DNA of 58,582 nucleotides, counting the filler, from Jimgerdemannia flammicorona (lineage: Eukaryota), in NCBI GenBank assembly GCA_003990765.1. It is 3 parts of 3 records of this genome, joined end to end, with 100 filler letters (N's around TTAATTAATTAA, not from the genome) between each part and the next. Parts side by side here need not be neighbours in the genome. Positions count along the whole stretch, not along the records: positions 1 to 19,463 come from RBNJ01001933.1; 2 more parts are not named here. One strand, 5' to 3'. The notes under the pieces were generated by a model that was not told the origin of the DNA, ran no database searches, and saw only the letters and a list, made by a program, of their open reading frames with translations. Each line of letters opens with the position of its first letter. Position 1 is the stretch's first letter. The translations under genes were made by a program, and so were the position numbers. Positions 1 through 55,333 of this stretch are shown here, piece after piece.

Positions 1-3000
1 TTCTAATGAAAGACCACTTTGTCTAACACAATCTCCACCCTCCCACCACTCTGCTCACAGATCCTTACCACCAAACTACAATGTTGCCCCCCTGAGGACC
101 CCAACCCACCCACCATCCAGTCAGCAGATCCTCCAACAGCTCCTCCCACCTTAATGCTTTCTTCTGCAGTCCCATCTATTACTTCTCCTCAAATATAAAA
201 AGCCAATATCCTACCAGTCCCACCCACACTGCTAACACCCACCCTACAGTGAGCCAACTATTACCCACCCCACCTACTAGCCAAGATCTCAAGTCCTTCC
301 AGTGGCCCCCCTCACCTGCTGGCCTTTGCTCTACACTCAGTCTATTCCCTATTTCTATCCAAAAGTCCCCCAAAACATCATATTCTCCCAACCAATATTC
401 CAGCATCTGTATAAGACCCCCAGCTTGCCCTATATTATAATACTCCTCACAATCAAAATGGCCACTGTCCACCAGATGCCTAGTGCAGAAATTCAACATA
501 ATATTCCTCCATAGCATTCACCACCATACTACCTAGAACTTGGGAGGAAGCCACCTCTACACCTTAGTACTCCAGGACCAGATACCTGCCCAGTCCCACT
601 CCTTGCTGATCCCTGCTGCCTGCCAGCCACTTGGCTAAAGATCCTGGCCAAGGCCCTGCTGACACTCCACTCCATTCCCAATATTAAATGTAGCAAGTGG
701 AGTATCCCCCAGGAGCAGTCTATTCTATTGCCACATATCAGGCCCCCCCACTACCTCCCCCTCATTGCCCTGCCAGTATAGACCAATTCAGTATGCTCCA
801 TTTACCACTCCCCACCAAAAGCCCTTAAACCATAGCTGCTGATTTCTATTCAGCCCTATCAAAGAGAGCAGATCTCCTGAAGACCCCCAAGGGGAGGTTC
901 TCATCTCCCACACCTTCTGCAGCAGAGGCACCCAACCTTCTCCCTGCAGTTCAGCAGCTCTCTTCAACCACTAAGCTTGCAAGCAGTACAACCTCTTAGG
1001 GAAATCCACAAGGCCAAGACCTCCCCTGACCACTGGTGTTGCAAGAGCATCCCAACTGATCTGGGACCTCCTCTCTGCCCAAATCCAATCTCTAGCCACC
1101 TTTATCAGCCTCTTCACCACCCAAGCTAGAAAGTCTAGGTGATAGGCCATATACCATAGCTTGGGGAATCAGTATACATTCAGAATTGACACCTACCCCA
1201 CTAGAGAGATATGGTGGCCACTCCAACCTCAAAGGGCCTCCCCCCAAATGGTCACCCTGCTCTCTCACCACACTCATGGTAAGACAGAACTATATATAGA
1301 AAGGAAGATGCCCAGATACCGCACCACCTCACCAGTAGGGACAATTGTTCCAATAATGTCCCCACCCACTAACCCATTCCTTAGCACCATTGTCTCACAC
1401 TTATATCAGTTGAGCTTCACCTCAGAGTAAGTCTCATACCATTCCACTGTCTCCTTAAGTGCCTTGACATCTGCCACAGACCTAAGTCCAACCACCATAT
1501 CATCAGCAAAGGCCCCCACCTTCCACACTATACCATATATAGAGAGCCCTGCTATCTTCTGATGAATCCTATCCATCAATGGCTCCAATGATAGGACATA
1601 GAGAATAGGGGACAGAGGGTCTCTCTGAGAAACTCCTCTTCCCAAGGAAAATGCCAGACCTCAGTGATCATTATACATTAGCACCACCTGACTGCTCTCT
1701 AGCAGATTCAATATAGAGGTCTGAAATCTTGGGGGAACACCAATTCGATCCAACACCTTGCCCAGCCAAACCCACCATATATGGTCATAGGCCTTCTCCT
1801 GGTCCAAAAAGACCAATCTTCCATCTAGTCCACAAGCCCAGGCCCCTTCAATGACACTATGCACCCATGCAGTCCCATCCCTTATAAGTCTGTCTCTAAC
1901 AAAGCCCTGCTGCTCCTCCCCCAGCACCTGTTGGACAACTTTCTGCAACCTTGCAATAATCACCTTAGTCACTATCTTCCTGTCCATATCCAGGAGCATG
2001 ATCAGTCTCCAGTTCTTCCAGTCTTCCCTCCTCCCCTTGTCTTTGTACAATAAGGCCACCAGCCTGAGGTCCTGCTCTCCAACCCACTCACCACTCTGAA
2101 GAACATGGTCACAGAGCACTGCCATTTTACCCAAAACTCCAGGGACCTTTACCATTTTCTTCCAGAAGTCCCACAGTAACCCATCCTCCCCTAGCACTGT
2201 TCTAAGTTTAGTTGCTGCAAGGCCACTCTGAATCTCCTCTCCTTGCACCAGTAAGATCAAGTTACCCAGTCTGGCTACTAGTGGTGGCCCCCACTCCTCT
2301 AGTGTATTTGCAATTGCTGTCTCATCAGCACCCCCTTCTCTCTCACTCCACAAACCCTATCATCTCTCCTTCAAAACCCCTAAGTTGTTATATGCCATAT
2401 ACCATATCCCCATTGGCATCTAGGACTCCATCCCACCAATGCCACACCCTTCTAGCTTTGAGGAGTCTTGATAGGTACCTAGTAGGCCACTCACCCTCCT
2501 CAAGCCCCTACCACTATAGCCTAGCAGCCATCTCTCACATATGAGTCTCCTCCTCTTCTCTCAACACCTATTATAGTTCTACTATCTCTAATTTTGCCTA
2601 CTCTATCCTCCAATCCTCTACCCCATCAGAAGTAAGCAAATCTGCCCAATCCATTTGCAGTCTCCTCAGCCTGCTGGAAGCACACCCTGTGCACTTCCTC
2701 CTCTATCTCCCAGCTTCTCTACCAGCCTCTCCCCAATAGACCCTCACAGTCTCTTTCAATCTCATCCAACAGACACCCACAGACAAACCCTCATGCTTCT
2801 ACAAAGAAACCTTCACCTGAATGTCCTCTACTCATGAATCCCACAACCCCTTCTTAGCCAGCAGGGAGGAGTTAAGGTGCCAATGTCCAGGTCCATCTCC
2901 ACTTCCCCCAAACTGCCCCTGCCTCAACAGTCCCCAGTGATCAGACCATAGGCACCACTCCACCTCCAATGCCTTCCAAACATCTGAACCCCAGCACTCT

Positions 3001-5754
3001 GCTATCAGAATTCAGTCAATCCTTGTACCCAAGTCATTTACCTAATGTGTGTAGACCCTGGTATTGCCCCATCAAGTTCAGCCCATATCCCCTAAGAAGC
3101 TCAACTTCTCCACCTCTTCCCATGCATCCAGACCTCCACTTCTCCCTCCTGCACTCCTCTCTCCATCAGTTCTGTCTAGATGCTGATCCTGAACTATATT
3201 AAAGTCTCCACTGAGAACATTGACCTCTTCCTCCAAGAGAATACTCTCCTCCAGCAGCTCCTTAATCTACGCAGTCCTCTCACTCCTAATAGTGGGGCAG
3301 TAGCAAGAGCCAATCTTCACTGACTCCCACCCTGGCTGATGCCAATCTCCCCAGACCAAGCAATCACTCCAGCTCCTGATTCCCCCCAAGTCTCCTCTAC
3401 CCTTCCTTACCAGAATCGCTACTTTTCCAAACCAAGCAGTAGTCCCACCCCATTCCCTAGTCCATTCTACCTGATTATCCTCATCCTCACACCGAACATT
3501 CTGTAGTAAGAAGAGATCAGCCTCCAATCCCTTGAGCTAAGTAAAAATGTTCTTATGCTGCCCAGATCTCCTTAACCCATTCACATTCAAAGAGAAAATG
3601 TTAGTTATACTGTTCATAAGAAATAATGATATATAGTGATCCTATCCTCTACAAGTCTGCATTCAGCTCCTCCTGCACCAAGTCCAAGTCATGTTCAGTA
3701 GCTAGTTCCCTTTCTCCAGCTTCCCATGCCTCCAACTCTCCCAGAAGTTCAACTATCACCCCATCTTCTTACTCCTCAAAGTCCTAATGATACTTTAGAT
3801 AGGTCTCTTGCCAGAGCTGCAAACCATGACACTCTGCCCAACAGTAGGCTGCCCACTCACCAGCGACCACCACTAGCTCTGCCTTCCTTACCTCATCAAT
3901 CTCATATCCCTTCTCCTCTAGGAAGATCATAAGAATCTCCACCTTCAGTACCTCTACCACTCCATTGTCATGCAGAATCCACACCCAATGCTCCTCAGGT
4001 ATTACTCATAGGTTCACTTCTCCCAATGCCTCTGCTGCGAGATTATCTATCACCTTGCTCATCTACAACAAGTTCCCCACCTCTTTCCCTCCTGGAGTCC
4101 CTGGCCACCCTGTATCCAACATCATGGTGTTAGCTCCTACACTGACAGTCTCATCCCACTTCTCCTCAGGGACATCCACCAGCTCATCCTCACCAACTGC
4201 CACCACCTGGCCCCCTTTCTCCACATTGGGGACCCCAAAGTGCACTCACTGGGCCCCCTACATCAGTACATCCTCTGTTGTCTCTCTCTTCACAGCTGGG
4301 CCCCTTCTGATAAGAGAGGGGGGAGTGGTATCTAATTCCTGCTCCCAGACCTCAAATGTACCATTAGTATAGAGGTCCTTGCTCAGCACCTTCCCAGCTC
4401 CTTTCTTGCCTGCCTCTACCTCCCCTTCTCCTTTCCTGGCCCAGACACTGGCTTTGACTCCCCCAGATACCTCAGCTCCATCTGCCTTCTTCTTAGCCCC
4501 ACTGCTCATACTTGCCAACAACTCTCTCTGCCACTTACACCCCTGGGCCCACTCCCACTGCCCCTTGTTAGTTCGAATCCTCTTTCTATCAATAATCTCC
4601 AGATATATTGACTCCTCATACAACTTCCAGGCCTTCACCCTCCTTTCAACAGCACCACTCAACTCTTCCAGTACCTCTAATAAGTTCTCTTCCTCCTCTT
4701 TATTCCCTTACACCCTTGATACCTTATAGACAAAAGCCCGCCACATCAACACTGAGGGCCAGTTGCTCGCCTTCCCAGTGGCCTTCTTTCCTACCAGTCT
4801 AATCCTCATCTCTACATCATCAGTTCTAATAGAGGTCCCCTCCCACACCTAGAAACTGATATCCACCACATTGCCATACTCTGCCATCATCTCCTCCACT
4901 CTCCTCCTAGTCTTCTCCTTTGTCACAGTAGGCACCCCCTTCACCAGCAGCTGCACCACCCTGGGGTCCCACCTTAGGCAGTGCATTATGGGGACTACTA
5001 CCTTGCCAACCACCACTCCAGACTTCAGTATCTCATCCAGTGGGCCTGCCTTCTCAAAGCCCACCTCGACTCCCTCCAGGTCCTTCAGGAACTTCACTGA
5101 GGCCACTCTAGCCATCTACTTTGAGATAAGCCCCAAGACTATCCTCACCATCACCACCAAGTCTCAGAAGCACAGTGTTACTGCAAACTCCGAAATTGAC
5201 TTTCTGAGTAATGGTGCCACCCAGCCCCATCATACTATCAGTCAGGTCTCCCTTCTGCATCAGGAACCCCTGCTCCACACCACCATTAGCTGTTACATCT
5301 CTTTTTTTTTCCTGATTGCCCATCATACTACCATCAGCAGTCCTATCCCCAGCCACCACACCTCTAGCACCTATGCTTGCATTCCCCCCCTGAGCAACTC
5401 CCCCCCTCTCTAGACTTGCCTTGCCCTTTCCTACTGCAGCACCAGCCCTAGTCCCAGCCGACCACCCACTCTCCTTCACCTTCTCCACAAAACTTGGAGG
5501 GCCAGACCTCTCCCATAGCTACCAGACACCAGTCCACCTCTAGAGCCCCCACCACCCTTCGACTCTCCAAAGGCCCCCATCCCCAGGCCATAACCCCTCC
5601 CTACATACTGCTAGCTGAAAGCCCCAGGTCCACCTGATCCAGCACACTCAGCAGAACTCTTGCTCGATGATATTGTTATAATACCTTTCCTCCAAGTTGT
5701 GTTGAAAAACTATTACTTAAAGTTTGTGTAACATGAATTGTACCAGAGAAAGGT
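1..5754 (-). mobile_element. Degenerate non-LTR retrotransposon (L1/Tx1-like LINE), 3' end cut by the contig edge; ORF1 ~5660-3640, ORF2 (APE endonuclease + RT) ~3617-1
   Basis: RT motifs WRLIMLLDMDRK, QQGFVRDRLI, FLDQEKAYD, RGVSQRDPLSPILY and AFADD; endonuclease start FSLNVNG and DLFLLQ. Many stops. Colinear with 39127-44987. Confidence 0.93.
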
Positions 5755-6488
5755 ATATATATAAATACTCTCTATACTAAGTATATTATAACCTTAGCTC
5801 TACCTTCTCTAAATATAAGAATAAAGAAGTATTTTTATTAAAAAACTCTGAGATCTGACTTATTAATAATTCTAAGTCTAATCAACTTAGAATATAAGTA
5901 TAGTATCTCTATTAGTATAAGAACCTAAAAGTAATACTTAGACTATACTATTACAATAAACAATTGAAACTTAGTACTTTTTTATAAGATCTTAGAATTT
6001 AGGGCTAATAGTTATTTTGATTATTTATAATATATATATTAATTCTATTAATATATAGTTTTATTATAATTTAGTAGTAGTAGAAGTTACTCCTATCTAT
6101 GAGTAAGCTTCTTTTAAGGAATCTATCTAAATATAGACAATTTAGTCAATATTATTAATATTATGTATTAATAATAATAAAAAAACATCTTTACTCTAGC
6201 TACTCCTCAGAACTAAGCTAAAGTAGTTAATAGAATCATTACTAAGTAGACCAAGACTCATACCAGTTAAGAAGAATTTGATAGACTTAATAACAAAATA
6301 TCTAAGAAGTATTTGACACATTTATTATATTTAATAAAAAAGTTATCTATATTTAAGAAGTTAGAGAAGAATTCAAAAAATTAATTAGTAGCTATTTTTT
6401 ATAAAAAATATATAAGAGAATCTATTAAAGCTATAAGTAAATATTTTCTGAAATTTCTCTCTAATAATTATTATTACAAAGTCAAGAC

Positions 6489-6826
6489 TAATACTCCTAA
6501 ATAAATTGAATCAATTTGAATTAAATTAAATTAAGAGTCATTCAAATCAAATCAAATTGGGGATTTTTCAATTTAAATAAATTTTAAATTAAATTAAATT
6601 TAAATTGAATTAAGGGTCCAATTTGAACTCTATTTTTAGAAATATAATATCTTAATGAAAATATATCTAAATTTAATGATTTTTAGCTTATTAGATCACC
6701 TTATATAAGAGAATCTAATAAGCTAAAGATCATTATATTTAGATATATATTTGTCAAGTTATTATATTTTAAAAAATAAAGTTTAAATTAAATTTTAACC
6801 TTTGATTCAATTTATTGGAAGCACTA
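6489..6826. mobile_element. Decayed hAT-type MITE, same family as 16343-16766
   Basis: Termini taatactcctaa...ttggaagcacta; flanks gtcaagac/gttaaggt form an 8-bp TSD differing only by transitions; same internal palindrome. Confidence 0.75.
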
Positions 6827-8509: not shown

Positions 8510-8625
8510 AATTCAATTTGATTCAATTTGAACTAATTTAAATTAAAATAATCCCAATTTAATTCAATTTGAATGACTCTCAATTCAATTTAATTCAAAT
8601 TAATTTAATTTATTTAAGAGTACTA
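8510..8625. mobile_element. Terminal fragment of the hAT-type MITE
   Basis: attcaa repeats ending taagagtacta, the decayed form of gggagcacta. Confidence 0.6.
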
Positions 8626-9049
8626 ATTATACTTATTCAAGCTCTTTATCTTAGTATTAAAATAAATAAATCTACAAAATACCTCTGACTCACATTATTT
8701 AAAGATAAAGCAAACCAAGTAACAATATTTATAAGATAAGTTAATACTAATTATCATGCCAATAGATAGAATGATAATCAGAATCCAGACAGCACTCTCA
8801 CCAATAATGAGTATATGAGATTAAAAATATCTATATAATTGTAGACTCATAAGTAGAAAAGTTATAATCTATTTCACAGATACAGCTGCTCTGTAGTAGT
8901 ATAATTTCTCAGTACATCCTCTTATCTAAAAAACTCATACTAAAATTAATGCAAGTAAAGGAGATAATAATTATCATAACTATGAAGTCTACCTAGCTAC
9001 TATAGGTCTAAAGAAGCTAATAATCTAGTAGTTCTATAGCTCTATCTAT

Positions 9050-10578
9050 TGTAGCGGTGACCCCAGAATGATGACATCAGTACAGGAGACAGTCTTTCTT
9101 TACAAGCCACCAGATCGGAGTATAAGAAGATCATACAGCGTATGAGATGAGCAATGATGACCAACTGTGAGTCATTGTGACCACAGCACAAACATTCTGA
9201 AGAATATAAAAGAAGGATTAAGGAACTACAGTAGTAGCAACCAATAAGAACCACCAATCCCAAAATAGCTCAAAGACTTATCACAAACAAAATGCCTGCT
9301 GCCTGCCAAACCTCAAGGTCAAGGAATTATCAAGGTATCTCGGTCGAGAAAAGGATGTTCCAAGACATCAGAAGAGCCATGAGGACCCACTCAAGAAGGA
9401 CTCCTAGTGTCAACCTGGGTACTGCAGACCCTTATCACTTTATCCTCTACTGCCGTGAAATGGAAACAAGGATCACCATTGCCACCGAATGCCTCTAAAT
9501 GTGGCAGAAATACGAAATAGGAAACCTCCTCTATTGGGAGTTCCCACAGGCCAGCCCTCAAGAGCTACAAGATGCCACTCCTATGGACTTACGTGAGGTA
9601 AGGACAGCAAAGAAGATTCATCAGATCTTCAGGCATGCACCATGGTCGATTCTCAACTTGGAGTATGTTAGAGTCTCAGACTTCAGAGACCTGTCATCCC
9701 ACCGTATCAATGCACTAGAAGCCAGGGTAGCTACAGAAGCCCAGTCCACTATCACCCTCAACAGCGAAGAAGTAGAAGACTTCTGGCACCTTATCCTTTA
9801 GGACAACCCAGACCAATTCCCACAAGGATTAATCTCAGTATTCCAAGGCCCAAGTATCTGGGTTAGATCTCCCCAAGACCCCACATTTGTCCCCTATTTT
9901 GTGGAAGAGAACCTCATAGACTGGAGAGCTCCAGACCTTGTTCCCGATTTTCCTGTCACCCCCGAACGTGATGACATCATCGATGACATCATCCCGTGCA
10001 ACATTGAAACACGCGAAAATGATGAAGTATGCGAGACACGCGACCTACATGATGAATTTGCAGACCTCATCTCCTTCAGTAATGATGATGATAATGATGA
10101 TGAAGCTCCCATGATCCTAAACTTTCTGCTCTAAAAGTTCTTTGTTATACTGGATAATGCCAGCACCAGTATTCTTATGTAACACTGAATAATGCCAGCA
10201 CTGGTATTCTGAGGTGATGCGAAATTGTTCTAGCACTGGTATTTTGATGTGGTACTAAATAATGCCAGCCCTAAAACTTAGTAGTTTTAGTTATTGGAAT
10301 TTATATTTAGCTTTATATCTTAACAACTATTGAATTATATTTTGTATAAATACCTCTCTTATTTTCTCTGAAATAAAGTCAGTTCTACTCAGTGCAATAT
10401 ACACACTTCCTTGCAAGCAATCTAAGAGATAACAAGACAGTTAAAGATAAGAAGTTTGAGGACTATAAGATCTTGGGAAGGCACTCCAATAAGAACTTGC
10501 TTATAACAACTTGAGTTAGTCTAAGAGATATACCTTGAAGAGAATCTGGCATATTTGAAGGACTCAGCGACCACTACA
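9050..10578 (+). mobile_element. ~1.53-kb LTR (probably solo) of an LTR retrotransposon, copy 1
   Basis: TGTAG...CTACA inverted termini mark exactly where similarity to 15174-17160 starts and stops; TATAAA at 10345 and AATAAA at 10372 give a U3-R-U5 layout. No clean TSD. Confidence 0.8.
9292..10134 (+). pseudogene. LTR-encoded ~280-codon protein of unknown function with acidic C-terminus
   Basis: ORFs 9292-9498, 9499-9801 and 9901-10134 share one frame, broken by two point stops; the second stop is GAG in copy 2. Confidence 0.8.
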
Positions 10579-11030
10579 TGACACTATATTGCTAAAGCCA
10601 GAACTAAGCTCAAGAATCTCTAATTCTATAATGATAAAAAAGAAGACCTAGAAGTATTTGTAACAAAATTAAAAATCCTCCTAAATAATATATAAATAGA
10701 ATATAGTTAATGAAAACAGACTATAAATAGAACCAGAGTAGCATACTTCTTTAATGCTATCTCTAGATAATTATTAGAGATGATTCAAAAGTAAGAATAA
10801 TCCTACAACTATCTATATAAGTAATGATATCTGGAATAAGCTGTTATCAGAATATATACTATTTTAATAACTTAAAGACTAAGAGACAATAGAAATAACA
10901 ACAAAGGAGACAAGCAATATCAATTTAAAAAAATCTTCAAAATTATAAGAAAGATTCAAGAAATTATCTAATAAGGAAATAGAAGAACTTATAAAGAAAG
11001 AAGTATTAGATTATATAATAAATTCTCAAT
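10579..11030 (+). mobile_element. Heavily decayed gag-like remnant
   Basis: Residual reading KLKNL*FYNDKKEDLEVFVTKLKILL resembles a retrotransposon gag; very AT-rich. Confidence 0.3.
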
Positions 11031-11039
11031 ATAATCTTT

Positions 11040-11772
11040 GTGGTTTTTTTTTGGAGAAATGCATTTAGTAATATATTATCATATTAGAGTTTAGAGAAGT
11101 ATACTGGACAGAGAGGCCCTAGTGCATTTGACTGATAGTATGTAGGGCAGAGATATAATATAAAAGAAGGTCTCTGAGCCTTTATGAGAATGAGAGCAGA
11201 CAGAAAAAGGTAAGAGATCTGGTAGAAGTAGGCTGAAGACTGAGAGAATGAGCTTTGCTAATAAGATTAGGCAGAGAGAGCATTAGCAAGATTAGATAGA
11301 TAGTTGTAAAGGAGGAAGGAAAAGGCATCAGCTGAAGAATCTAGAGGGACTGCTCTGGGAGTATAGTGACTAGAGAGGAGAGAGAGACTGCTGATGGAGA
11401 TATAACTACTAATCTGAAAAAAAAATTCAAATATAATAGCTAATGGAGGTCCAGAACTGATAGATGATATAAGGTCTGAGGACTTAGTCAATAGTATAAT
11501 GAGCTTGATGATAGTACTGTTACTTAAGAAATTAGTATTAAAATTTACAGTCATACATATTATACTTCTAGAGCTTAGTAGTTACAGCAAAGTTGATTCT
11601 AAGACTACTGATCCAATAGGTGAAAGGAGTGGTCTCAGTGAAGTTTCTGAAGAGACTAGAGGAGATTAAGATAGACTTTGAGAAAGAGGGCCTAATATTG
11701 GAGGTACTAGAGAAGAGAGTAGTAGTTAAGAGAGTAGTGATCTCTATAGTAAGATATCTGTAGTAATAGGTA
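11040..11772 (+). mobile_element. LINE 5' fragment (5' UTR and start of ORF1)
   Basis: Direct repeat of ~11830-12545; related to the reverse complement of 4950-5700. Confidence 0.75.
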
Positions 11773-14700
11773 ACATCTTTCTCTAGTATTATTCAGATTA
11801 CACAAACTTTTGACAATACTTTTAACATAGTTTTTAGAGAAAAGGTGATAGCAATATAGCAACTAATGAGTAATCAAAAGAGTATATTGGACAGAGTGAC
11901 TCTAATATATTTGACTGACAGTATGTAGAGAGAAGTTATGACTTGGGGAAAAGTCTGTTGGACTCTTATTTAGATGAATATAGGGTTGGCAATAGTGAGA
12001 GATAAGGTACTAATAGACAGAAGACCAAGAGAGTGAGCTTTACTAATAAGGTCAAGACTGGAGATCAGTCAGCAGACTTAGATAAATAGCTATAGAGAGG
12101 TAAGGAGAAGGTGAGGGCTGCAGAGCTGCTCAGAGTGATAGTGGTAGCAGAGCTGAGAGAGTAGTAGCTGGAAGAAGAAGTGACTGCTGATGGAGAGGCA
12201 ACTGTTAATCTGAAAAAAAATTCCAGATATAATGGCTGATAGAAGGTCTGAGTAGAGGAGAGACATAAGGCTCAGGAACTTAGCTAATAGTATAATGGGC
12301 CTAGTGGCAGTACCATTACTCAAGAAATTGGTATCTAAATTTATAGTCACTTTATACTTCCAGGGCTTAGTAGGGCAAAAATAATTCTGAGACTTCTGGC
12401 TCAGAAGGCAAAAAAAGTAGCCTTAGTGAAGTTTCAGAAGAGACTGGAGAAAGTAGAGATAGGCTTTAAAGAGGAGGATTTGATACTGAAAGTGTTGGAG
12501 AAAGAGGTGGTAGTTAAGGAAATAGCAATCTCTATGGCTTAATGCTTGTACTAAAACCCCCAGATAGTTTAGCTAGTAATAGTTAATATACTGACAGTAA
12601 AGAAAGAGGAGGCCAGAAAATTGATTATTGATACTATTAAGGAGTATAGTGATGTTATTGATATTGGTTTTTAGGTCCAGAGTTTAGAATAGAGGATGTA
12701 GATATCAGGGTGAGGCTGGCAGAAAAGAAGAATACTGGAAAAGAGAGAAACTGATTAGTAGTACTAAAGTGGGACCTAGTGGAGTATAAGGTCTCAAGAG
12801 TAAAGAGGATGCCTGAGGAGAAGGAGGAGGATTTGCTGGAGATATTAAAGGATCTGACTGGAGCAGTGGAGAGGAGAAGGCTGGTCTAGAAGGAGTTTGA
12901 GACTAAGATAGTGGTAGAGATTGTAAATGGTAAGAGAGTGAGACTGGATCAGACTGCTTGAGAGAGAGCTCAAGGAAGATAGTGACAAAAGAATTTATTG
13001 GCAAATTTGGAAGAAAGTATAGAGGGGGTAAATACTGCTGAGAGAGTTGGTTCATAGATTAGTATCTGGGTAGGAGAGAGAAGGATGGCTCAGGTGGAGG
13101 CCCTGATAGGAGGGTAGGGTTCAGGGGTAGAGTAAAGTAGCTAAAGATGAGATGATGGCTTAAGTCTGATATAGAGTTTCTACAAAGAGTGGAGAGACTG
13201 ATGAGCTGTAGGATATACTAAAAGAGAACTGAAATAAGTCAGTGAGGATGAATGCTGATGGGGGCCTAAGAGTAGGGGGGCAGGTGATAGCTCTGAAAGT
13301 AGAGGTAGTGATTGGAGATAACAATATAGTGGCTGATGAGTTGAGAGAGATTGATTTTTGTATTATTGGTGAGGTATGCTAGAATATAATCTTGTAAGGA
13401 GAGAAGGTAGTGCAAAAGCTCAGAGATGAGTTAATGGCTGCTCTACTAGAAATAGAGAAGTATGAGGTAAATACTGATAGGGAGGCTGTACTTCTGGTAA
13501 TTGCAAATGATCACATAGCATATCTGTGGGGTCTGAGGAAGGAGTTGGTAAAATAGCAGATAGTGTGTGAGAAATATAGGTCTTCTATAGAGGTGTAGAA
13601 TAAAGAGGACTGTCTGGAGATATTGGTAGCTCTGAATACTCAGCAGAGAGAGGTAAATAAACTTGAGACTAAAAGAAACTTAGATATAGCTGGTAATATA
13701 GTGAGTATAAAATTGTAGAGTAGGTAGTTCTTCTTTAATATAAATAGTATAACTAGGATTTTCTCTCTAAATATTAATAGATTATAGGGGACAGTGAGAT
13801 ATTAGAATATTTTCTGCTAGCTGAGAGGGCTGGATATTGATCTGTTCTTGTAATAGAATGTGAGATATGATGAGGACTTAGATATGTTAGACTAGACAAG
13901 AAAATAGAGAGATATAGCTATATAAAGGGACAGAATGAGAATTCTAATATAGAAAAAGAAGAGAGATATTGGGGATATTGAACACTGAGAGGGTAAAGTA
14001 GTGTGAGAGAGGTAGCAGAGACCAGACTGAGATTTAGTAGTTATTGGGTCTTACTATTATCTAGCAGAAAGAGAGACATACTTAGAGTAGATAAGAGGTG
14101 TGTGAGACTTGAGTGCTCTGGTAGAGATAGGGATTGACTACATTGATAGAGACTTTAACTTGATTTGTAATAGAAGATTAGACAGGACAGATGGTGAGCA
14201 GGAGCTATCTAGGAGGATATTAAATAGCTTAGTACTCTGATAGATATAGGTCAATAAGTGTGAGATAATTACTGAGTTTATATACATTAGACAGCTGAGC
14301 TTAGTTTGTAGATTGACTGGATCCTAACTACTGAGTACTAGAGGGAAATATTTGGAATAATTGGAAACAGTATAGTGCCTATAGTTTGACTATTGAGATC
14401 TTCTGAGATATAGAAGGTTTGGAGAAAGTAGGGAGGGGCTAGAATATTAGTACCTGAATACTTTCTTGCTAGATAAGCCCTCTTTGTAAGATATCTGAGT
14501 TTATTTGACTATAAGGAGTACTTCAATATTAGGCAGAAAGGTGAGTAGTATAGACTTCAGAATATTGACTAGATAAGTATGAGATACTGTCAGATTTCTG
14601 GTTGATAATTGAGAGTCAGCTAGGGGTACAGTCTTCTGAAGAGATAGAGAGAGAGCAGTAGAGTACTCTTTAGTCATGTCTAGTAGGAGAGGTTAGAGAT

Positions 14701-15000
14701 AAATAACTTTTAATAAAGTAGACTCTTGCTATTTGGATTGGACTCTCTGGACATTAGTTGAATATCTTTAAGAATAGCCAGAAGGTATTACTAAAAAGAG
14801 GCTAGTGAGGTGAAAGTAGCTATATACTATTGAAATTTTTAAATAAGTAGTGGACTGGGTAGAGACCCAGAGAAGATCTATATCATAAGCTTATAGAAAA
14901 GATATATATGAAGAGTAGAGGGTAGATTTAGACAATTGAGAGAGTGATTACTTTCAATTTTGAAAGGGTGAGAAGTGAGACCCCCCAGGAGATTGAATAG
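11773..15000 (+). mobile_element. Degenerate LINE, 5' half (5' UTR, ORF1, endonuclease)
   Basis: 5' UTR ctttctctagtattattcagattacacaaacttt matches the other LINE 5' ends; endonuclease start IFSLNIN at ~13760. Confidence 0.85.
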
Positions 15001-15427
15001 AGAGTAGAGCTATTATATAATATATTAGTATAGATAGATTTGGTAATAAATATACATAGAAGTCTAAATAACTATAAATATATATATATTTTTCTACTAT
15101 AAAAAGAGAGAACATATATCTCATAAATAATTTAATAAAAAGATCAATATGAATAAAGAACTATCCTCTTTACTATAACAGTAACCTCAGAATAATGATA
15201 TCAGTATAGAAGACAGTCTTTTCTTATAAGCCACCAGATCAGAGTATAAGAAGATCATATAGTATGACTCATCTGGACTATAAGATAAGCAATGATGACC
15301 AACTATGAGTCATTGTAACCACAAGATAGATATCTTGAGGAATATAAAAGAAGAATCAAGAAACCATAGTAGTAGCAATCCAAAAAAAAGCTCATAGAAA
15401 TAGTTCTAAAGACTTACTACAAATAAA

Positions 15428-16258
15428 ATATCTGCTACTTATCAAACCTCAAGATCCAGAAACCACCAAGGCCTCTCAGTCTAGGAAAGAATATTCTAAG
15501 ACATCAGAAGAGCTATGAGGACCCATACAAGAAGGACTCCTAGTATCAATCTAGATACTGGTGACCCCTATCATTATATCCTCTACTGTTACAAAATGGA
15601 AACAAGGATCACTATTGCTACTGAATACCTTTAGATGTAGTAGAAGTATGAAATAGGAAACCTCCTCTTCTGGAAATTCCCTCAGACCAGTCACCAGGAA
15701 ATACAAGATATCACTCCTATAGATGTATATGAAATAAGGATAGCCAAGAAGATTTATCAGATTTTCAGACATATACTATGGTCAATCCCCAACTTAGAGT
15801 ATACTAGGATCTCAGACTTCAAGAAACTGTTAGCCCATCATACCAATATACTAGAGACCATGGTGACCACAGAAGCCCAGTCTACTATCACTCTCAATAG
15901 TAATGAGGTAGAAGAGTTCTGGAATCCCATTCTTGAGGATAATCTTGATCAATTTCTGCAACAATTGATCTCAGCATTTCAAGGCCCCAGCATTTGGGTT
16001 AGACCTCCCCAAGACCTCACATTTATCTCTTATTTTGTGGAAGAGAATGTCATAGATTGGAGAGCCCCAGATCTCCTTGTTCTCTTCACTACTGAATGTG
16101 ATAATATTATCAGCAATAATGTTATCTCATGTGATATATGCAAAATAGACAAAATGTTCACAAACCTTATCTTCTTTGAAGACATCCTGTCTCCAACCTC
16201 TGATCTTGATAATAGTGATGAAGATGAAGCCTCCATAGTCCTGAACTTTCTGCTCTAA
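15428..16258 (+). pseudogene. Second copy of the LTR-encoded ORF (ATG mutated to ATA)
   Basis: ORF 15860-16258 (TEAQSTITLNSNEVEEFW...VEENVIDWRAPDL...VLNFLL) matches the C-terminal half of 9292-10134. Confidence 0.8.
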
Positions 16259-16342
16259 GTTCTTAGTAATACTAGATTCTACCAGTATTCTGATCTTGTA
16301 TAACTCAGAAATTCTTCTGGTATTCTTTTTCTATACTACTGA

Positions 16343-16766
16343 TAGTGCTCCCAAATGAGTCAAATCAATTCGAATCAAATCAAATTGAGGGTTAAATGAG
16401 TTGAATCGAATTGGGGATTTTTCAATTCGAATCAATTCAAATTGAATCAAAAGTTGAATCGAATTGAGGGTCTGATTCGAACCCTAATTTTCAAAATGCA
16501 ATAACTCAGCGTAAACTCATCCAAATCTAACGTACTTTAGCTTGTTAGAATCACATTAATATGGTGAATCCAACAAGCTAAAATATATTAAATTTGGATG
16601 AGATTTTGTCGAGTTATTACATTTTGAAAATTAAGGTTCGAATCGAACTTTGAATCGAATTGGACCTTTGATTCAATTCAAATCGAATCGAATTGGACCC
16701 TTGATTCGATTGAATCGAATCGAGTTTGGGCCAAATTCAATTCAATTCAATTCGTTGGGAGCACTA
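16343..16766. mobile_element. hAT-type MITE with subterminal TCGAA repeats and a central palindrome
   Basis: TIR TAGTGCTCCCAA...TTGGGAGCACTA; flanks ctactga/ccactga; absent from LTR copy 1. Confidence 0.88.
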
Positions 16767-17729
16767 CCACTGAAATTCTACTGGCATCTTGAATTTGTAC
16801 AACTATTTGTACAGATACTTGAACTTGTACTTATGTATAACTGTAGTTTTCTGTATTCCAGTATTTTATTTGGTTATTAGAATTTATATTTAGCTTTATA
16901 ACTTAGCAACTATTGAATTATATTTTGTATAAATACCCCTCTTATTTTCTTTGAAATAAAGTCAATCAAGTTCACTTACTCTCAATTCCATGCAAGCAAT
17001 TTAAGAGATAACAAGATAGTTTAAAGATAAGAAGTTTGAGGACTATAAGATCTTGAGAAGGCACTCTAATAAGAACTTGCTTATAACAAACTTATAGTTA
17101 GTCTAAGAGATACACCTTGGAGAGAATCTGACATATTTGAAGAACTTAGTAACTACTACATAATATTACATACTATTACTATAATAGGAGATAATCTTAA
17201 AAGAATCTCTGAAAAAATCAAGGTCAAGAGATTCTACATTGTTTAAAAATTCCAAATAAAGTATATAAATCTAATACTGGCTAAAACCTCTACTCAAGCA
17301 TAGAAATAACTATTAAACTGAATAAGCAAGTAACAATTAGTATAGGTGTTAGAATAGAAGTCTCCAAAGGAGCTTATATCTGTCTTATAGAAAGAAGCAG
17401 TCTGGCTAAGAAAGATAGACTCTATATAGCTAGAGAAGTTATAGATCAAGAATTCAAAGGTAAAATCAATATTCTGTTATATAATACTAGATAGAAGATA
17501 GTTGAAATTATATTTAAAAAATAAATTATCTAAGTCTTTTTTGAGATAATATATAATAACTTTAAAGTCAAAAAAACAAACAAACTATTACTTTCCAATA
17601 GAGGAGAAAAAGCTTTTGGATTAATAGAAAAACACTCTGATAAGACCAAAGAGAAGACTAGAATATAAAATATTATTTATATTGAAGAATCTCAAGACCA
17701 AGACTAGAAATAATACCAGTACATTACTG

Positions 17730-18015
17730 ATAGATATATTCTAGCAAGGGTCTCTGGAGTGTTAGGAGAGATAGTGGCCCTCTGTGATCTTGTTCTTCTG
17801 AGGGGTTGGTAGGTGGGAGGGCAGGACCTAGGACTAGTGGCCCTATTGTATAAGGACAAAAGGAGGAGAGAGAATTAGAAGAACTAGAGGCCAATCATAC
17901 TTCTGGATATGGATAGAAAGATGGTGACTAAGGTAATTATTGTGAGATTACAGAAGATTGCCCAACAGGTATTGGGTGAGAAGTAGTAGAGCTTTGTTGG
18001 AGACAGACTTATTAG
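17730..18015 (+). mobile_element. LINE RT fragment
   Basis: LVALLYKDK...RPIILLDMDRKMVTKVII...FVGDRLI matches the other LINE RTs. Confidence 0.85.
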
Positions 18016-18285: not shown

Positions 18286-18459
18286 GACCTATATTTAACC
18301 CATCTTTAATCCACCTTTAAGCTATAAGGTACAAAAAAAAATATATTGCACATCTAAGATATATATTTAGAATAAACAAACAGAAACATAATTAGGAATC
18401 AGAAATCAAAATGAAATCGGAAATAAATAGGAAGTAAATTAGGAACATAAAGAACTTAC

Positions 18460-19463
18460 CAGTGTGAACAGATCTTACTCTTCATTGCTATAAACCAACT
18501 GATCCTCCTCTTCATCACTATAAACCAACTGATCCTCCTCCTTCTCATATTCCGAACCATCTTCCTCCATATATTCCAAACTGCTTTCCTCTATATCCTC
18601 CTCCTCCATATCCTCCTCTGGGCCGACCTCCTCTATGCCAACCTCCATTTTGTCCTCTATGCCGACCTCCCCGTATTCCTCCACACTGACCTCCCTGTGT
18701 TCCTCCACGCTGACCTCCCCATGTTCCTCCGTGCCAACCTCCCATGTTCCTCCGCACCGACCTTCCCCATGCCAACCTCCCCATGTTCCTCTATACTGAC
18801 CTCCCCCGTGCTGACCTCTCCATGTTCCTTCATGCTGACCTCCTCCATGCCAACCTCTCCTGCACCGACCTCCCCCGTGCCGACCTCCCCCGTGCTAACC
18901 TCCCCTGCGCTGATCTCCCCTGCGCCAACTACCCCACGCCAACCTCTCCACTGACCTCTCCACCAGTGCCGACTCCTCCACCGGCACTGACCTCTCCCAC
19001 CTCTCCATCTCCTCCACCACCACCCCCCTCAACAAAATGCACAAGCCTGCCATCCATCAGTCGCGTATAAAGCATTTTGTCATTCTTCACCGGTACTCAT
19101 TCAAATATAGCCAGCAGTTTTTCATGTTCATCCATGACAACAATTCCATCTGAACAACCTCACTTGTTCCATGCTTTGGCATTCACCTTGAAGCTGGTGT
19201 GGTATGACGAACGTTCTACGATTTTCACATGGTTTTCTATCGCTCTTATGACTTCTTGCCTCAGTTGGTCATCATGTACTTTCTTAATACATTTGTTGGC
19301 CACAGCGAAAGCACGCCTAATGTCCGATTTGTAAGGCCTTTTCTCCATGAGGTTTGGGGCATCCAGGAAATTGATTTGGCAATGCTTCCAGGTGGTGTTT
19401 GGGCAAACTTGATGGCAAAAATGGCAATTGTAGCAAGATTTGCGCTCTGGCCCAGGCTTAGAA
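18460..19463 (-). pseudogene. Degenerate ORF: Cys-rich segment, helical middle, Gly/Glu-rich 15/30-bp repeat tail
   Basis: Frame KSCYNCHFCHQVC...MEKRPYK...AWNK*GCSDG...FE*VPVK continues through TGA stops (probably from CGA) into GEVG/EEHGEV repeats; GTAAGT donor-like site near 18459. Confidence 0.5.
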
Positions 19464-19563
19464 NNNNNNNNNNNNNNNNNNNNNNNNNNNNNNNNNNNNN
19501 NNNNNNNTTAATTAATTAANNNNNNNNNNNNNNNNNNNNNNNNNNNNNNNNNNNNNNNNNNNN
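19464..19563. other. Artificial contig spacer
   Basis: N44-TTAATTAATTAA-N44, identical to 39027-39126. Confidence 0.98.
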
Positions 19564-19959: not shown

Positions 19960-22900
19960 CAGTGTCTGTTTTGTTGGCTAAAAGTTAGGAGATATGATGT
20001 GGTACTTCAGGATGTTCAAGCTTATGGTGAACAGGACTATGAGAAGTAGTACAAGGAATAGTATGGCAATACTGGTTAGAATAGGCAGGTGGGCATATTA
20101 GTGGGTATTAATAGGGGTGAATTGATAAAAGTGGAAGCCTATGGTGATCAGATGATATGGGGAAGATTAAAAGAAGGACTGGGAGATAGACTGGTGGTGG
20201 CCTCTGCCTATCTTCTAGTAGTTGGCAGAGAGTGAAAGCAATGGGTGGAGAATTGGCTAACATGAGAGGGCTGGGAGGAGATGGAGTTGGACATTCTAGG
20301 GGGAGATTTTAACATAATGCATGACAGAACTCTGGATAGGTCTGATGGGGGAGTAGGTGTGGCAGTCTCAGCAGGGCTGGCTTAGTGGCTCCAGGTTGAG
20401 AGAGATATAGATCTGGTGGATGATATTCAACAGCAGCAAAGAGAAAAGCCAGGGCCCTTTACTTGATGGTATTCAGTGGGCAAAGGTCTGGTAGGGACAA
20501 GAATCAATTGGATTCTGGTGGCTGAAGGTTGGGGAAATGTTCTGAATATTGTGGGGGCTAGGTGGTGCCCTTGGTCAGATTATTGGAGAGTGGAAGTGAG
20601 TGGCAGATTTCAGGAGATCCAGGGGTAAGGGTTACTGGCAGCTCAATATAGTACTTTTCTATAGGCAGGCAGAATGAAATAACTTTATAGAGATAGCAAA
20701 ACAGGAGGTAGCAAGGTAGAAGGAGGAAGGGCAACAGATAGAGCAGTAGTGGGGTAAATTCAAACATTTGGCTGGTGCCTATTGATAGGATGTAGAGGAG
20801 GTTGCTGGGAGAGAGCAAAAGGACAAAGAGAGGAGAGTAGAGCAAGGACTATAATGATAGTTGAGATTGATGGAAAGGGGGAATCTGTCTGAAGCAAGGC
20901 ACTCTCAGTTGGCTGCAGAGTTGGCTGAATTGTAGCTAGATCTTAGAGTAGCTGAGAATAGAGTAGTTGATAGCCTACTAGTGAGGCTGTGAACAAGGTG
21001 GTTAGAGGAAAGAGAGCAGCCTATAAAGTATCTATTGGGCATCTTGAAGGCCAGAAAAGTATGACATAGCTGGGCTTCTATATTGTGTGAGGATGGGGTT
21101 GAGGTCACTGGAATTATGGAAATACTGGGCAAGATTTCTGGGTAATGGTGAGACCTCTGGCAGGATGAAGGGGGACCAGTGGTGAGTAGGGTGATGCAAG
21201 AAGACAATGACAATTTGGTTTGAAGTTGGCCAGTAGTAGTGCAGTCTAAAATGAGTGAGGTGATAATAGATAGAGTGGTTCTAAAAGAGGTATTGGAGGT
21301 GTTGGAGAAAGTACAGATGGGTTCATCTCTGGGAGAGGATGGGTTGCCATGGGAATTCTAAAAGGAGTTCCAGATTGAGTTTGGAGACTGGCTAGTTGAA
21401 ATGGCAAACTTTATCTTGAAGGAAGAAAGCTGGATTAGCAATGGTTCTGTAGGGCTAGTCTCTCTACTATATAAGAAGAAAGGAGATTGGCAGGTGTAGT
21501 GGAATTGACAGCCAATTATGTTACTAAATGTAGACAGGAAACTGGTATCTAAGATCCTGGCTGGGAGGATGTAGTAGTAGATTAGCAGACTGGTGGGGGA
21601 GGACCAAAGAGGCTTTGTCAAAGGGAGGCAGATTAGAGATAGTATAACTTGGGTATAGAATGTTTTGGAGGGCTATTAGAGTCAGTAAGTAGATGGGAGG
21701 ATAGTCTTCTTGGATCAGGAGAAGGCATATAATAGAGTATAGTGAAACTATCTTAAGGTGGTACTACAAAAAGCTGGGTTCCATTCTGAAGAGATAAGGA
21801 GGTTGATGGGGCTGGTACAAGGTTGTCAAGCAGTAGTCCTGATGAATGGATGGAGTGATCCAGAGTTCATCTTAGGGAGGGGGGTACTACAGAGTGACCT
21901 GCTCTCCCCTCTTCTCTATATTCTTTCCTTGAAACCTTTGTTGGCCTAGCTGAAGGGGTGGCTAACTGGATTGTGAATGAGAGATATAGTCTGGAAACTG
22001 GGGACATTTGCTAATGATATGGTAGTTAGACTGAGCTACTTAGAGGATATAGGATGTCTGCAAGAAGGGATTGGAGAGTATAAGAGGTTGGTAGGTATAA
22101 AATTGAACTGAGACAAGTGTGAGATGATGGAGCTTAGTATAGGTTTGGAAGAGAATGAGAGATTTGGAAAGACAGTAGCTGTTGAGAATACAGTTCATTA
22201 TTTGGGCATCTGGTTTTCAGTTTATGAGACAGTATTGCCAAAGGAGTGGTGGTGTAGTATGATATAGAAGTGGGAAAGAGCACTAGCTGGTTGGTCAGGG
22301 AGGTACTTCTCCTTAGTGAGGAGAGTGGTGGTCCTGAATGTGTATTGGTTACCAAAACTGTGGTATTTGGGATATCATTTGGATTTTTCAAGTTGGGTGG
22401 TACAGAAGTTGAAGAAGGTAGTGGAAGGATAGTTATAGCAAGGAGGATGGCCACAAATTAGTTGGGAGATAGTGATATTAGGGAAAGCTGATAAAGGTCT
22501 GGGATTGGTGGACTTTCAGAGGAGGTTGAAGGTACTTCAGGGTTTGTGGAGATATTAGCTGGTAGAGCTAGGAGAAGAAGGTTGGGGCAGACTGACTATG
22601 GACAATTGGGAGGTCAGGTTCTGCCCCCATAGAGAGATCTGGAAGGATATGTGAGGGCTGCTTCAGGTGAGAAAGGTCAGTAGATTGCAGTTCAAAGAGT
22701 TCTAGTGGAATATTGTAGAGGCCTATCTGGCTATGGGATTGACAAAGAGAGGGTGAGAATCTAGAGTAGTAATGGTAGCAGTTGGAGGACCTGCACATTA
22801 GTAGACACTGGTTGGTGGAGTATTCTCTGATAGAGGCAATAGTGTAGATCAGATCTGACCCTCTTGAAAGGGGGCTGGTAGACTGGCAGAAGGCTGAGTT

Positions 22901-23626
22901 TGGGGAGGATTGAGATTGAGGAAAGATCTAGAGCTGGGGGGATTTCTTGCTTAAGGTTATACTATCTAAGTACTGGGTGGTATGGTAGAGATTCATGAGG
23001 AGGAACATGATGCTCAGTTATAAGACAGGATGAATGAAAGTGGATAGAGGTAGGAATTGTAAGTAGTATAGTAAGATGGATGGTAGAGTGGTGCAGATAC
23101 CAGAGTATATTCTGGTAGAATGTCCAGGAATAGAAGAGTACTGGCAGATACTAGAAGGATATTGGGGCCTAAAGGAGAGGAGGTTTGGAGAACTCACTGG
23201 TCTGATAGTCAAGAGGCATCTAGTTGAAGTCTCTGGAGATATTTTGAGTGGGCTGGGCTGAGTTCTTGGAGTCTGGATTTTGATGGCAGTATATTGGCAT
23301 TGGGTATTTGAGCAGGAGCCTTGGATGGAGATAGGGGAGTTGGTTGAGAGGTGGTAATGGCTCATTAGGGAGGTAGTGCAAGAATGGTAGTTTCAGGGAA
23401 AGTGGCAATAGCTGGGAGTCTTGAGGAGAGTACAGAACATTGTAAAGAAGAGTCATGATAATTTAATACTAGATGACTGAAGAGTTAGGTAGAAGGAAGG
23501 GGTTGGCTGAGAGGTCTTTCTGTATATATCTTAGTAGTAGTCAGAGTGAGGGCCTTATTAATATATTAGAATCTAGGTAATAAAGGAGTCTAAGAGACTA
23601 AAAAAAAAAAAAAAAAAAAAAAAAAA
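19960..23626 (+). mobile_element. Degenerate LINE ORF2 (endonuclease + RT) of a related family, ending in poly(A)
   Basis: LGGDFN, GEDGLPWEF, PIMLLNVDRKLVSKILA, LDQEKAYNRV, RGVLQSDLLSPLLY and FANDMVV motifs; A-tail at 23600-23626. Confidence 0.9.
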
Positions 23627-24465
23627 GCAAAGAAAAACTCCCCTCAAAGTATAAAACAGTAGATAAGACCTGGTTCTCCCTAGTGAAATAAGTAGAGAAC
23701 TTATATATAAGACAAGAGAAGACCTCTAATACTTTACTACTCAAGTCTATAAGTCTTGATCATATTGCTATATCAGCTCTTAGTTTTAGTTAAGTATAGC
23801 TAAGATGTCTGACCCAGATAGCCTTGGGCCCCCCAATAACTTCCAAATGATATTGCAATATACTGAGAGCAACCAAGAGTGATACCTACTACCTAATTAC
23901 TCTATATCAATTAAAAGGTCTCATCAATATATGTAGTATCTATCTCAGCTCTGATAACTACTCTCAGCCTAGTACTCTACTGATCTACTGTTATTACTCT
24001 TCTACCTATCTATGATAGCCATCTTCTTTCTCATCTCAATAATACCTAAAAAACAGCCATCTATACCAGAACTGTACTTACTAAGAAGCTTGCCAAAGCC
24101 AGAGAGTCTCACTATAGATATTAAGAACCTATAAGTAACCTATACTGAGCACTTGATACTCAAGATCAGCTAACTCTCTATACAACCTATGATATACCAA
24201 GATGATACCTTATTGATAATAGTAAAAGGAGAAAAGTGCTATATCAAAATAGATATATCTCAGATGAGCTAAAGATACCAGAAACTACAAAAATGTAAAG
24301 AAGACACCAATCTGATACTGATAAAAAGGCAACTCATCACCATTATCTCTCTTCTACTGTTCTGCAATAGGTATAGTAAACCAACCTAAGGTAGAGAGAG
24401 TATTAGTTATAAAAGTGGACTTGGAAGATTATTTATCAAATCTTATAACTAATAAAATAGTAGAG
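23627..24465. repeat. Unclassified interspersed repeat, copy 2
   Basis: Colinear with 7625-8490. Confidence 0.8.
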
Positions 24466-25021: not shown

Positions 25022-25549
25022 TATGAAAAGACACCAAGTTTTAAGGATGCTTGAGTAGTAATAAGAAGCATATTTTCATATTAAAGAATAAAGAAACAAA
25101 TATGAAGAATATCTCTTTACTTACTTATATATGTGGATTTTGGTTTTGTTTTTGTTCATACATGTTCTTGCTATGAAAATGGAAAAAGGACTATTCAAGA
25201 CTAGTCAAGTGATTTTAACAAATTCGATAGTCAATTGGTCACGATTTTTTGAGCGGTGTTCTTCAAAGCCGAAAATGGCGGTTTTTTTTTTTTTTTTTTT
25301 TTTTTTTCTTCCTTCCGAAAATGGCGGTTTGTTATTTTGTTATTAATCAAAACAAGCTGACGCGTTGCCAGAATACGTGATTGGGTGGCGTACTGGACGA
25401 GTGACGGTTTGTCGTTGGTGGCGGAGAGACTAGTATATAAAAGATGAGGTTGAGAGCAGTATCCTAACAATTCAAGAACTTCTTGAGCAATAGTTCAGAA
25501 AAAAAAAACCCCCCTCATTCTACCCCTTCAACACTTCAAGAGGTCAATA

Positions 25550-39026: not shown

Positions 39027-39126
39027 NNNNNNNNNNNNNNNNNNNNNNNNNNNNNNNNNNNNNNNNNNNNTTAATTAATTAANNNNNNNNNNNNNNNNNN
39101 NNNNNNNNNNNNNNNNNNNNNNNNNN
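39027..39126. other. Artificial contig spacer
   Basis: N44-TTAATTAATTAA-N44. Confidence 0.98.
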
Positions 39127-44987: not shown

Positions 44988-45171
44988 CTCAAAACCTACA
45001 GTTTAGCTATCTCAGCTATATAAGAATAGTATTATATATCTCTATCTCAATAATTGGTAGATCACACTTATCTATTTATCAGAGCTAGATCATTAGGACT
45101 AATATCTATAAGAGTGTACTTATATATCAGATTTGGTAATATCAGAACTAAACAATATAACTTCTCTGATC

Positions 45172-47799: not shown

Positions 47800-47849
47800 T
47801 CAGCCCCCACTGAAGGATAGCCTGTCTCAGACTGTTTTTTAGTCATCAT

Positions 47850-48300: not shown

Positions 48301-48351
48301 CTTGGAAGGAGCTGAGGACCAATATCTGGTGGTGCTGATCAATCCTTTGGC

Positions 48352-49400: not shown

Positions 49401-49415
49401 CACCCTTTTTCTAGT

Positions 49416-55331: not shown

Positions 55332-55333
55332 AA

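Follow-up and report, generated by a model that had tools for sequence, protein, structure and literature searches.

Can a retrotransposon that is not a retrovirus keep a protein gene wholly inside its long terminal repeat (LTR), and does such a gene persist where only a solo LTR is left? Textbooks know protein genes within LTRs as an oddity of a few retroviruses. The question is raised here by a stretch of 58,582 nucleotides (nt) from Jimgerdemannia flammicorona (GCA_003990765.1; three parts of three records, joined with filler letters), referred to below as the window; all coordinates are positions along the whole of it. An earlier note, made from the sequence alone, had described in this stretch two copies of a 1.5-kb repeat, each holding the same frame of about 280 codons, and had proposed an accessory gene duplicated with each LTR. 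We find that the repeats are solo LTRs and that a conserved, unannotated gene family lies inside their U3 (unique 3′) region and is preserved in solo LTRs.

When the region 9050–10578 was compared with the window by blastn, two repeat copies and no others (repeat family D10) were found, at 9050–10583 (copy 1) and 15174–17165 (copy 2). These units and the features that delimit them are as follows.

9046–9049, + strand: target-site duplication CTAT, left of copy 1, by direct reading; the same letters stand at 10584–10587.
9050–10583, + strand: solo LTR copy 1, 1534 bp, TGTAG...CTACATGACA, by alignment, contig depth and loose contig ends.
10584–10587, + strand: target-site duplication CTAT, right of copy 1, by direct reading and public contigs.
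15170–15173, + strand: target-site duplication TTAC, left of copy 2, by direct reading.
15174–17165, + strand: solo LTR copy 2, 1992 bp including a 420-bp miniature inverted-repeat transposable element (MITE), by alignment.
16345–16764, no strand assigned: foldback MITE in the U3 of copy 2, with ends GTGCTCCC...GGGAGCAC and TA/TA flanks; not part of the LTR proper.
17166–17169, + strand: target-site duplication TTAC, right of copy 2, by direct reading.

Both copies have TG..CA termini. Copy 1 runs from TGTAG to CATGACA (right terminus ...CTACATGACA), and the ends of copy 2, TATAA... and ...CTACATAATA, are derived from these termini by G>A and C>T transitions. The terminal inverted repeat of the unit is 3–5 nt long. 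The target-site duplications are 4 bp, perfect, and form one distinct pair per copy; together with the ends of public contigs they set the right limit at 10583 in copy 1 and at 17165 in copy 2. Upstream of their left ends the two copies have only AT-richness in common. Because each copy has a separate duplication, the two are independent solo LTRs and not the two ends of one element. The pairing of the copies as the 5′ and 3′ LTR of a single element was considered, and is ruled out by their own duplications and by their divergence: in a global alignment 1146 of 1504 aligned positions were identical (76%), the 358 differences comprised 264 transitions and 94 transversions, and indels and an unalignable tail region set the copies further apart. 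The 4.6 kb separating them is mostly G-rich, decayed DNA like that of long interspersed nuclear elements (LINEs). Each repeat is therefore a solo LTR from a separate insertion of one LTR-retrotransposon family.

The same limits were seen in public contigs, which come from runs of two soil metagenomes and two coded organisms. In four public runs, contig depth reached hundreds to thousands on 8817–10718 and was about 0–7 in the adjoining bins. Related contigs lose their match at 9050 or 9057 on the left and, in several runs, at 10583 on the right. One contig carries an empty-site joint, 9045 to 10584, with four letters fitting either side, and a second joint omitting the whole unit, 9031 to 10584, was likewise found in one contig, the joints coming from two runs. 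The possibility that the DNA flanking the copies is the LTR's own interior is ruled out, since this DNA is outside the duplications and the empty-site contigs join 9045 straight to 10584. A weak gag-like stretch (PNMA, E 0.19) occupies 10584–11061, right after copy 1 and outside the duplication. A dUTPase domain at 17246–17620 (E 4e-14), nearly complete and stop-ridden, adjoins copy 2, with a LINE reverse transcriptase (RT) fragment after it; the dUTPase domain was probably left by an older Gypsy element hit by the LTR element. Both the gag-like stretch and the dUTPase belong to the DNA that was hit.

Contigs in which the match ends at the limits of the unit suggest what may adjoin it in a complete element. 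Past 10583, eight contigs of run X1 and one of run X2 share an identical flank, ACTTGGTGCCCATTGG...; this 3′-side flank reads ACT+TGGTGCCCATTGG... (ACT-TGGTGCCC...), so that TGG begins 3 nt past the LTR end, as would look like a primer-binding site (PBS). Directly before 9050, three contigs of X2 have a purine run, CAGGAG(G/A)AAGA, i.e. ...CAGGAGGAAGA (...AGGAGGAAGA), resembling a polypurine tract (PPT). A scan of the window with the PBS-like motif gave 21 matches at no more than 3 mismatches, compared with 13.0 +/- 3.6 expected (4 of 100 shuffles reached 21), and located no internal region of the LTR family; tRNA genes were not found in the window either. In a viral contig collection there was no relative of the protein encoded in the repeat and no match to the 22-nt PBS-side flank. 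A 15-residue match in a bacterial metagenome-assembled genome (L002, from a genome contig collection) was taken as chance.

The earlier note had expected the repeats to be LTRs with target-site duplications and to flank gag-pol. The first two points hold at both copies, with CTAT/CTAT and TTAC/TTAC as perfect 4-bp duplications, and the TG..CA ends, the layout of TATA box and poly(A) signal, and the PBS-like and PPT-like junctions of related contigs make it very probable that the unit is an LTR. The third does not hold in the window, where the copies are separate insertions with mostly decayed LINE-like DNA between them. As for the ends, which the note had given as TGTAG..CTACA, the left one is correct; the right one lies 5 nt beyond CTACA, as the duplications and public contigs indicate.

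The greater length of copy 2 includes the MITE, which is 420 bp with internal inverted arms of 132 nt. One contig of run X1 skips it by a joint, 16339 to 16773, with two letters between. This MITE has its own contig depth in coded organism A, and related pieces are found at 6489–6695 and about 8513–8640.

Each LTR contains one long reading frame together with candidate control signals, listed here in the order of copy 1.

9168–9174, + strand: TGAGTCA, 31 nt before the first TATA box; kept in copy 2 at 15306–15312.
9205–9212, + strand: first TATA box, TATAAAAG, with the ATG of the frame 87 nt downstream; in copy 2 at 15343–15350.
9292–10135, + strand: LTR-borne open reading frame (ORF) of copy 1, 281 codons, with stops at 9496–9498 (TAA) and 9799–9801 (TAG), by translation and relatives.
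10138–10210, + strand: 35-bp tandem repeat (2.1 copies), situated downstream of the ORF stop and upstream of the second TATA box.
10345–10352, + strand: second TATA box, TATAAATA, at the end of U3, 210 nt past the ORF end.
10372–10377, + strand: poly(A) signal AATAAA, its first letter 27 nt from that of the second TATA box.
15428–16258, + strand: LTR-borne ORF of copy 2, 277 codons, with five internal stops and ATA for ATG, by translation and relatives.

The frame has two in-frame stops in copy 1 and five in copy 2; the remaining five frames have 10–23 and 11–28, respectively. Stop counts this low did not occur in any of 2000 shuffles, whose means were 13.6 and 17.0 and whose minima were 3 and 7. 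The first stop of copy 1 arose from a Gln codon by C>T change: in four public runs position 9496 is C, giving the Gln codon, in 483.9/487.2, 30.4/30.4, 835/835 and 129.2/129.2 of the depth. Relatives carry Gln (five) or Glu (two) where copy 1 has its second stop. Transition mutations created the stops of copy 1, at two positions that are mostly Gln in relatives, as well as the five stops and the lost ATG of copy 2. Among the changes in copy 2, C>T and G>A were strongly over-represented, and the proportion of C>T change was highest at CpG (26/44), followed by CpA (79/215) and CpC (43/142). The CpG observed/expected ratio was 0.04–0.36 in repeats of the window versus 0.98 in the gene region at 25–38.5 kb. 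The repeats of the window show repeat-directed cytosine mutation that is broader than CpG alone, and both LTR copies are dead.

A word-index search found six relatives of the ORF, at 56–85% identity and on short contigs; an exhaustive profile search of 1.84 billion representatives found seven proteins of 62–342 aa, and among these representatives there was no longer or cellular relative. The 46–58 kb Gypsy element of the window contained none by tblastn. Uninterrupted ORFs occur in P0005 (271 aa), in metagenome contig L001 (323 aa) and in P0012 (342 aa, 40% identical), and uninterrupted relatives reach down to about 21–40% identity. The L001 protein is 54–55% identical to P0005 in the alignment; against copy 1, its best tblastn segment shows 62% identity. 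Conservation is blockwise: the centre and the P..LNF.L end are conserved, and the acidic tail varies. For copy 1 versus L001, the ratio of nonsynonymous to synonymous substitution rates (dN/dS) was 0.185 across 277 codons and 0.128 in the 193-codon core; for copy 1 versus copy 2 it was 0.192. These values are rough because dS is saturated. Differences by codon position numbered 104/72/140 and 61/39/105, third positions being the highest. Judged from its sequence, the frame is a genuine gene; purifying selection has acted on it, and both copies in the window have decayed. It is highly likely that the LTR carries a selected gene.

The U3 share of each LTR is about 1.3 kb, and the ORF lies in it completely. 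Downstream of the ORF, the second TATA box is the putative promoter of the genomic RNA of the element. The sequence TGTATAAATACC(C/T)CTC is common here to copy 1, copy 2 and L001, and in copy 2 the box is at 16928–16935 and the AATAAA at 16955–16960. From AATAAA to the LTR end there are 206 nt in copy 1, and the U3-R-U5 layout is also found in copy 2 and L001. Upstream of the ORF, the first TATA box is its likely promoter, judging from position and conservation, and the TGAGTCA before it is presumably, by its consensus, an AP-1/Gcn4-type bZIP site. The 35-bp tandem repeat may represent an enhancer or binding sites. The order in L001 is GAATATAAAAG, 65 nt, ATG, the ORF, about 180 nt, TGTATAAATACCCCTC and AATAAA. 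This arrangement suggests that a separate promoter in U3 drives the gene and that its transcript ends at the LTR poly(A) signal. Deep contigs of run X9 cover 9358–9761 and 10173–10470; the RNA nature of this run is a guess, and it was not used as evidence of expression.

What the earlier note had said of the gene is borne out by these results: the same frame of about 280 codons is present in both copies (281 and 277 codons, with few stops relative to other frames and shuffles), wholly upstream of the LTR's TATA box and so in U3, with the TATA/AATAAA pair behind it in both; it is continuous in relatives of 271–342 aa; dN/dS of about 0.13–0.19 indicates purifying selection; and, both copies being solos, the gene has been left behind in solo LTRs.

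Several properties of the protein are shared by family members. In close members the first 45 residues are arginine-rich (7–10 R+K) with a net charge of +4 to +8, and the C-terminal tails are acidic, as the earlier note had stated, with a net charge of -8 to -25 and repeated hydrophobic motifs of the DLISF / LNFLL type. No membrane segment was found in seven members (maximum mean hydropathy over 19 residues, 0.47–1.05), and the protein is predicted to be soluble. Across 12 members, the only Pfam family matched was ATG5_HBR, in 3 of the 12 with a best E of 0.028. The ESM Atlas gave no hit at >=0.9 for P0005. An AlphaFold2 model from a 12-sequence alignment consisted of a helical core and a disordered tail, with a mean predicted local distance difference test score (pLDDT) of 59.1 at full length; for the core alone the mean pLDDT was 75.2 and the predicted template modelling score 0.63. 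With an exhaustive aligner, the top rows for the core model were DNA-binding domains of ParB/SopB/VirB/KorB (Z 3.4–4.6 over 74–80 residues, all under the aligner's stated noise level of Z 8): 3vwb_A (Z 4.6, 75 residues aligned, root-mean-square deviation 3.8), 3mkw_B (Z 4.6, 80 residues), 1zx4_A (Z 4.1, 77 residues) and, lower, 1r71_A (Z 3.5) and 8qa8_A (Z 3.4). The full model gave many TetR/AraC helix-turn-helix rows with the same aligner, at Z 3.4–4.5 and hence also under that level. The helix-turn-helix likeness of the modelled helical core may serve as a weak lead.

These features can be combined into a scheme for the action of the gene. Transcription would start from the first TATA box and the transcript would be polyadenylated at the LTR's own signal, yielding from every LTR, whether solo or paired, an mRNA of about 1.15 kb, so that each LTR would be a free-standing expression unit. 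The genomic RNA would begin at or just after AATAAA, and the poly(A) signal would therefore be met only in the 3′ LTR. The protein would be a nuclear trans-acting regulator of the element. Taken as a whole, the reading that these are solo LTRs with a complete U3 gene for a trans-acting regulator, most likely a transactivator, has in our judgment slightly better than an even chance. Among the possible functions, a transactivator fits best because it would account for the predicted nucleic-acid-binding helical core, the basic N-terminus and the acidic tail; still, that the protein is a DNA-binding transactivator of the LTR promoter is a tentative proposal, based on charge layout and weak fold likeness. 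The proposal that a non-retroviral retrotransposon family keeps a selected trans-acting gene, with its own promoter, wholly in U3, so that solo LTRs stay genes, is likewise possible and open to considerable doubt.

A number of observations weigh against this scheme. The transcription starts, the poly(A) site and the use of the first TATA box are placed by spacing and conservation only. The dS values are saturated (pS 0.70, and undefined for copy 2 versus L001), and the dN/dS comparisons include the decay of the copies after insertion. The gag-pol of the LTR family was not found in the window, and scans of the collections returned only a 1345-bp contig; the PBS and PPT junctions come from 15–30 nt of loose metagenome contig ends, placed at likeness of at least 80%. 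As to the protein, the distant members P0012–P0014 do not have a strongly basic N-terminus (P0012 has 4 R+K and a net charge of +1). No Pfam family was matched at E <= 1 by P0005, the L001 ORF or the window pieces, a PDB profile search gave no hits at E <= 10, and Foldseek searches of PDB and BFVD returned no match at E <= 0.001. The Atlas model of P0005 has a pLDDT of 0.35, and the fold matches given above fall, without exception, within the aligner's noise.

Of the alternatives, the one that survives best agrees that the LTR carries a selected U3 gene and differs in the function of the product, which would counter host silencing, by RNA interference or by the cytosine methylation marking these repeats, instead of activating transcription. 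The heavy C>T change and CpG depletion of the window repeats speak for it, as a suppressor would benefit an element so pressed; a product supplied by each solo LTR would suit a defence acting in trans, and the failure to match any known family is common for fast-evolving antagonists. The sequence, however, does not hint at RNA binding, at a nuclease or at a fold linked to methylation, and a core kept to about 21–40% identity with dN/dS about 0.13–0.19 looks less like an arms race. We consider a silencing suppressor rather unlikely.

A post-transcriptional role like that of Rev/Rex, in which the N-terminus of the U3-encoded protein would bind RNA and the C-terminal motifs would serve export or packaging, is improbable. 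The arginine-rich N-terminus of close members and the repeated tail motifs are as such a protein might have them, but the basic character is weak in distant members such as P0012, no splice signals or structured RNA target were seen, though no search was aimed at them, and a simple LTR retrotransposon has no known need for an export factor.

A similarly small chance is left for a unit that is not an LTR at all and is instead a small mobile element, for example a non-autonomous relative of Ginger-type elements with a passenger gene. Ginger-type elements are cut-and-paste transposons with a retroviral-type integrase, TGT..ACA ends, 4-bp duplications and long terminal inverted repeats. The window does hold only single copies with 4-bp duplications and no pair around gag-pol, and no internal region of the LTR family was recovered. 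Nevertheless, the terminal inverted repeat is just 3–5 nt, the TATA box and AATAAA stand about 200 nt from the 3′ end as in U3-R-U5, and the ORF has no integrase or other Pfam match. Moreover, many contigs have the TGG-starting 3′ flank in common and three the purine-tract 5′ flank, where the flanks of a dispersed element would vary.

Least credible, and already largely refuted, is a frame that is no functional gene of the element and represents a chance frame or a decaying captured host fragment: both window copies are broken and no known domain is matched, but 0 of 2000 shuffles with so few stops, uninterrupted ORFs in divergent relatives, the third-position excess with dN/dS about 0.13–0.19 and blockwise conservation, and hits of 62–342 aa with none longer or cellular among the 1.84 billion representatives all speak against it.

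The window around the solo LTRs is a transposon graveyard of LINE-like elements, a dUTPase-bearing Gypsy element and MITEs. LINE-like elements with RVT_1 are at 1–6000 (-), 39137–45000 (-), 20000–24233 (+), about 11040–15000 (+) and 17741–18013 (+); among them are several decayed pieces and a pair of long copies with about 80% likeness, and their strand bias is extreme, with a GC skew of about 0.3–0.55 in size and a G-rich coding strand. Pairs of 44-N runs, with 12 bases between the runs, are located at 19464–19563 and 39027–39126 and adjoin ends of LINE-like copies. A Ty3/Gypsy element at 46000–55500 (-) has dUTPase at 51360–51701, RT at 49991–50578 and RNase H at 49419–49793, and a second partial Gypsy copy is found 8.7–8.9 kb away (55515–58481); the Gypsy CpG observed/expected ratio is 0.04. 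In the gene region, the closest named matches of a kinase gene at 35904–36710 come from Endogone sp. (41% and 36% identity), and the nearest Atlas cluster of the kinase is from Mucoromycota, so that the host is probably a fungus. A tandem duplication, 25500–26600 / 28300–29420 (90–94% identity), involves a gene with an F420_oxidored / NADP oxidoreductase domain, whose first copy looks shorter or broken. The low-complexity proline/leucine-rich repeat region at 18451–19150 has open frames on either strand and matches the Pentapeptide repeat (E 8e-6); a simple repeat, rather than a gene, is the probable reading of it.

By architecture, the nearest known case is sag of mouse mammary tumour virus (MMTV), an ORF of ~300 codons that lies wholly in the U3 of an unusually long LTR (about 1.3–1.5 kb), upstream of TATA. 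The ORF at 9292–10135 is likewise wholly inside U3 and upstream of TATA, and in both systems the gene is therefore in every LTR copy. In MMTV the poly(A) signal is close to the start site and R is very short; the poly(A) signal of the present element is also very near the start site, so that R would be very short here as well. The differences are that the present protein matches no Pfam family and has no membrane segment, Sag being a type II membrane protein, that the present ORF has its own conserved TATA, and that the element is a retrotransposon and not an infectious virus, its host probably being a fungus. The Tas/Bel1 (and Bet) genes of foamy viruses are situated at the 3′ end and extend into U3, and Tas has its own internal promoter, a DNA-binding part and an acidic activating C-terminus. 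The likeness to Tas may be one of logic only, namely a regulator near or in U3 with its own promoter and an acidic C-terminus; there is no sequence likeness or significant fold likeness to the present protein, and the present gene is entirely in the LTR and hence kept by solo LTRs. The nef gene of human and simian immunodeficiency viruses overlaps the U3 of the 3′ LTR and is read from spliced genomic transcripts. It resembles the present ORF as an accessory ORF sharing DNA with U3, but it only overlaps U3 and has no homology to the present ORF.

Retrotransposons with genes beyond gag and pol offer a further comparison. The plant elements Ogre and Athila and bdelloid rotifer elements are examples. 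A review puts captured ORFs of LTR retrotransposons downstream of pol, where they replace env or stand before or after it (PMC6431247), and thus between the LTRs, unlike the present ORF inside the LTR. Ty3/Gypsy elements with dUTPase are described in fungi (PMC2864245). Here such elements are neighbours or insertion targets of the solo LTRs, and the 46–58 kb element is without a homologue of the ORF. The 'LTR ORF' literature retrieved consists of MMTV papers or generic uses of the term (e.g. PMC12037069), and the accessible text of the crapaud paper describes variable 5′ LTR halves and no LTR ORF (PMC10787394). In the full-text literature searched, which included MMTV papers and reviews of endogenous retroviruses and left most subscription journals outside its scope, no retrotransposon or fungal case of an LTR-internal ORF was found.

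If the proposed scheme is true, no protein gene internal to an LTR would have been described before in a fungal element, the fold of the protein would belong to no known family, and many solo LTRs would together supply a family-wide activator or silencing suppressor. Should the gene work in this way, solo LTRs would not be inert scars but dispersed genes acting in trans on their family, and the counting of solo LTRs in models of transposon regulation and silencing would change. The protein family, being small, conserved and unannotated, is a well-defined target for a first functional study.

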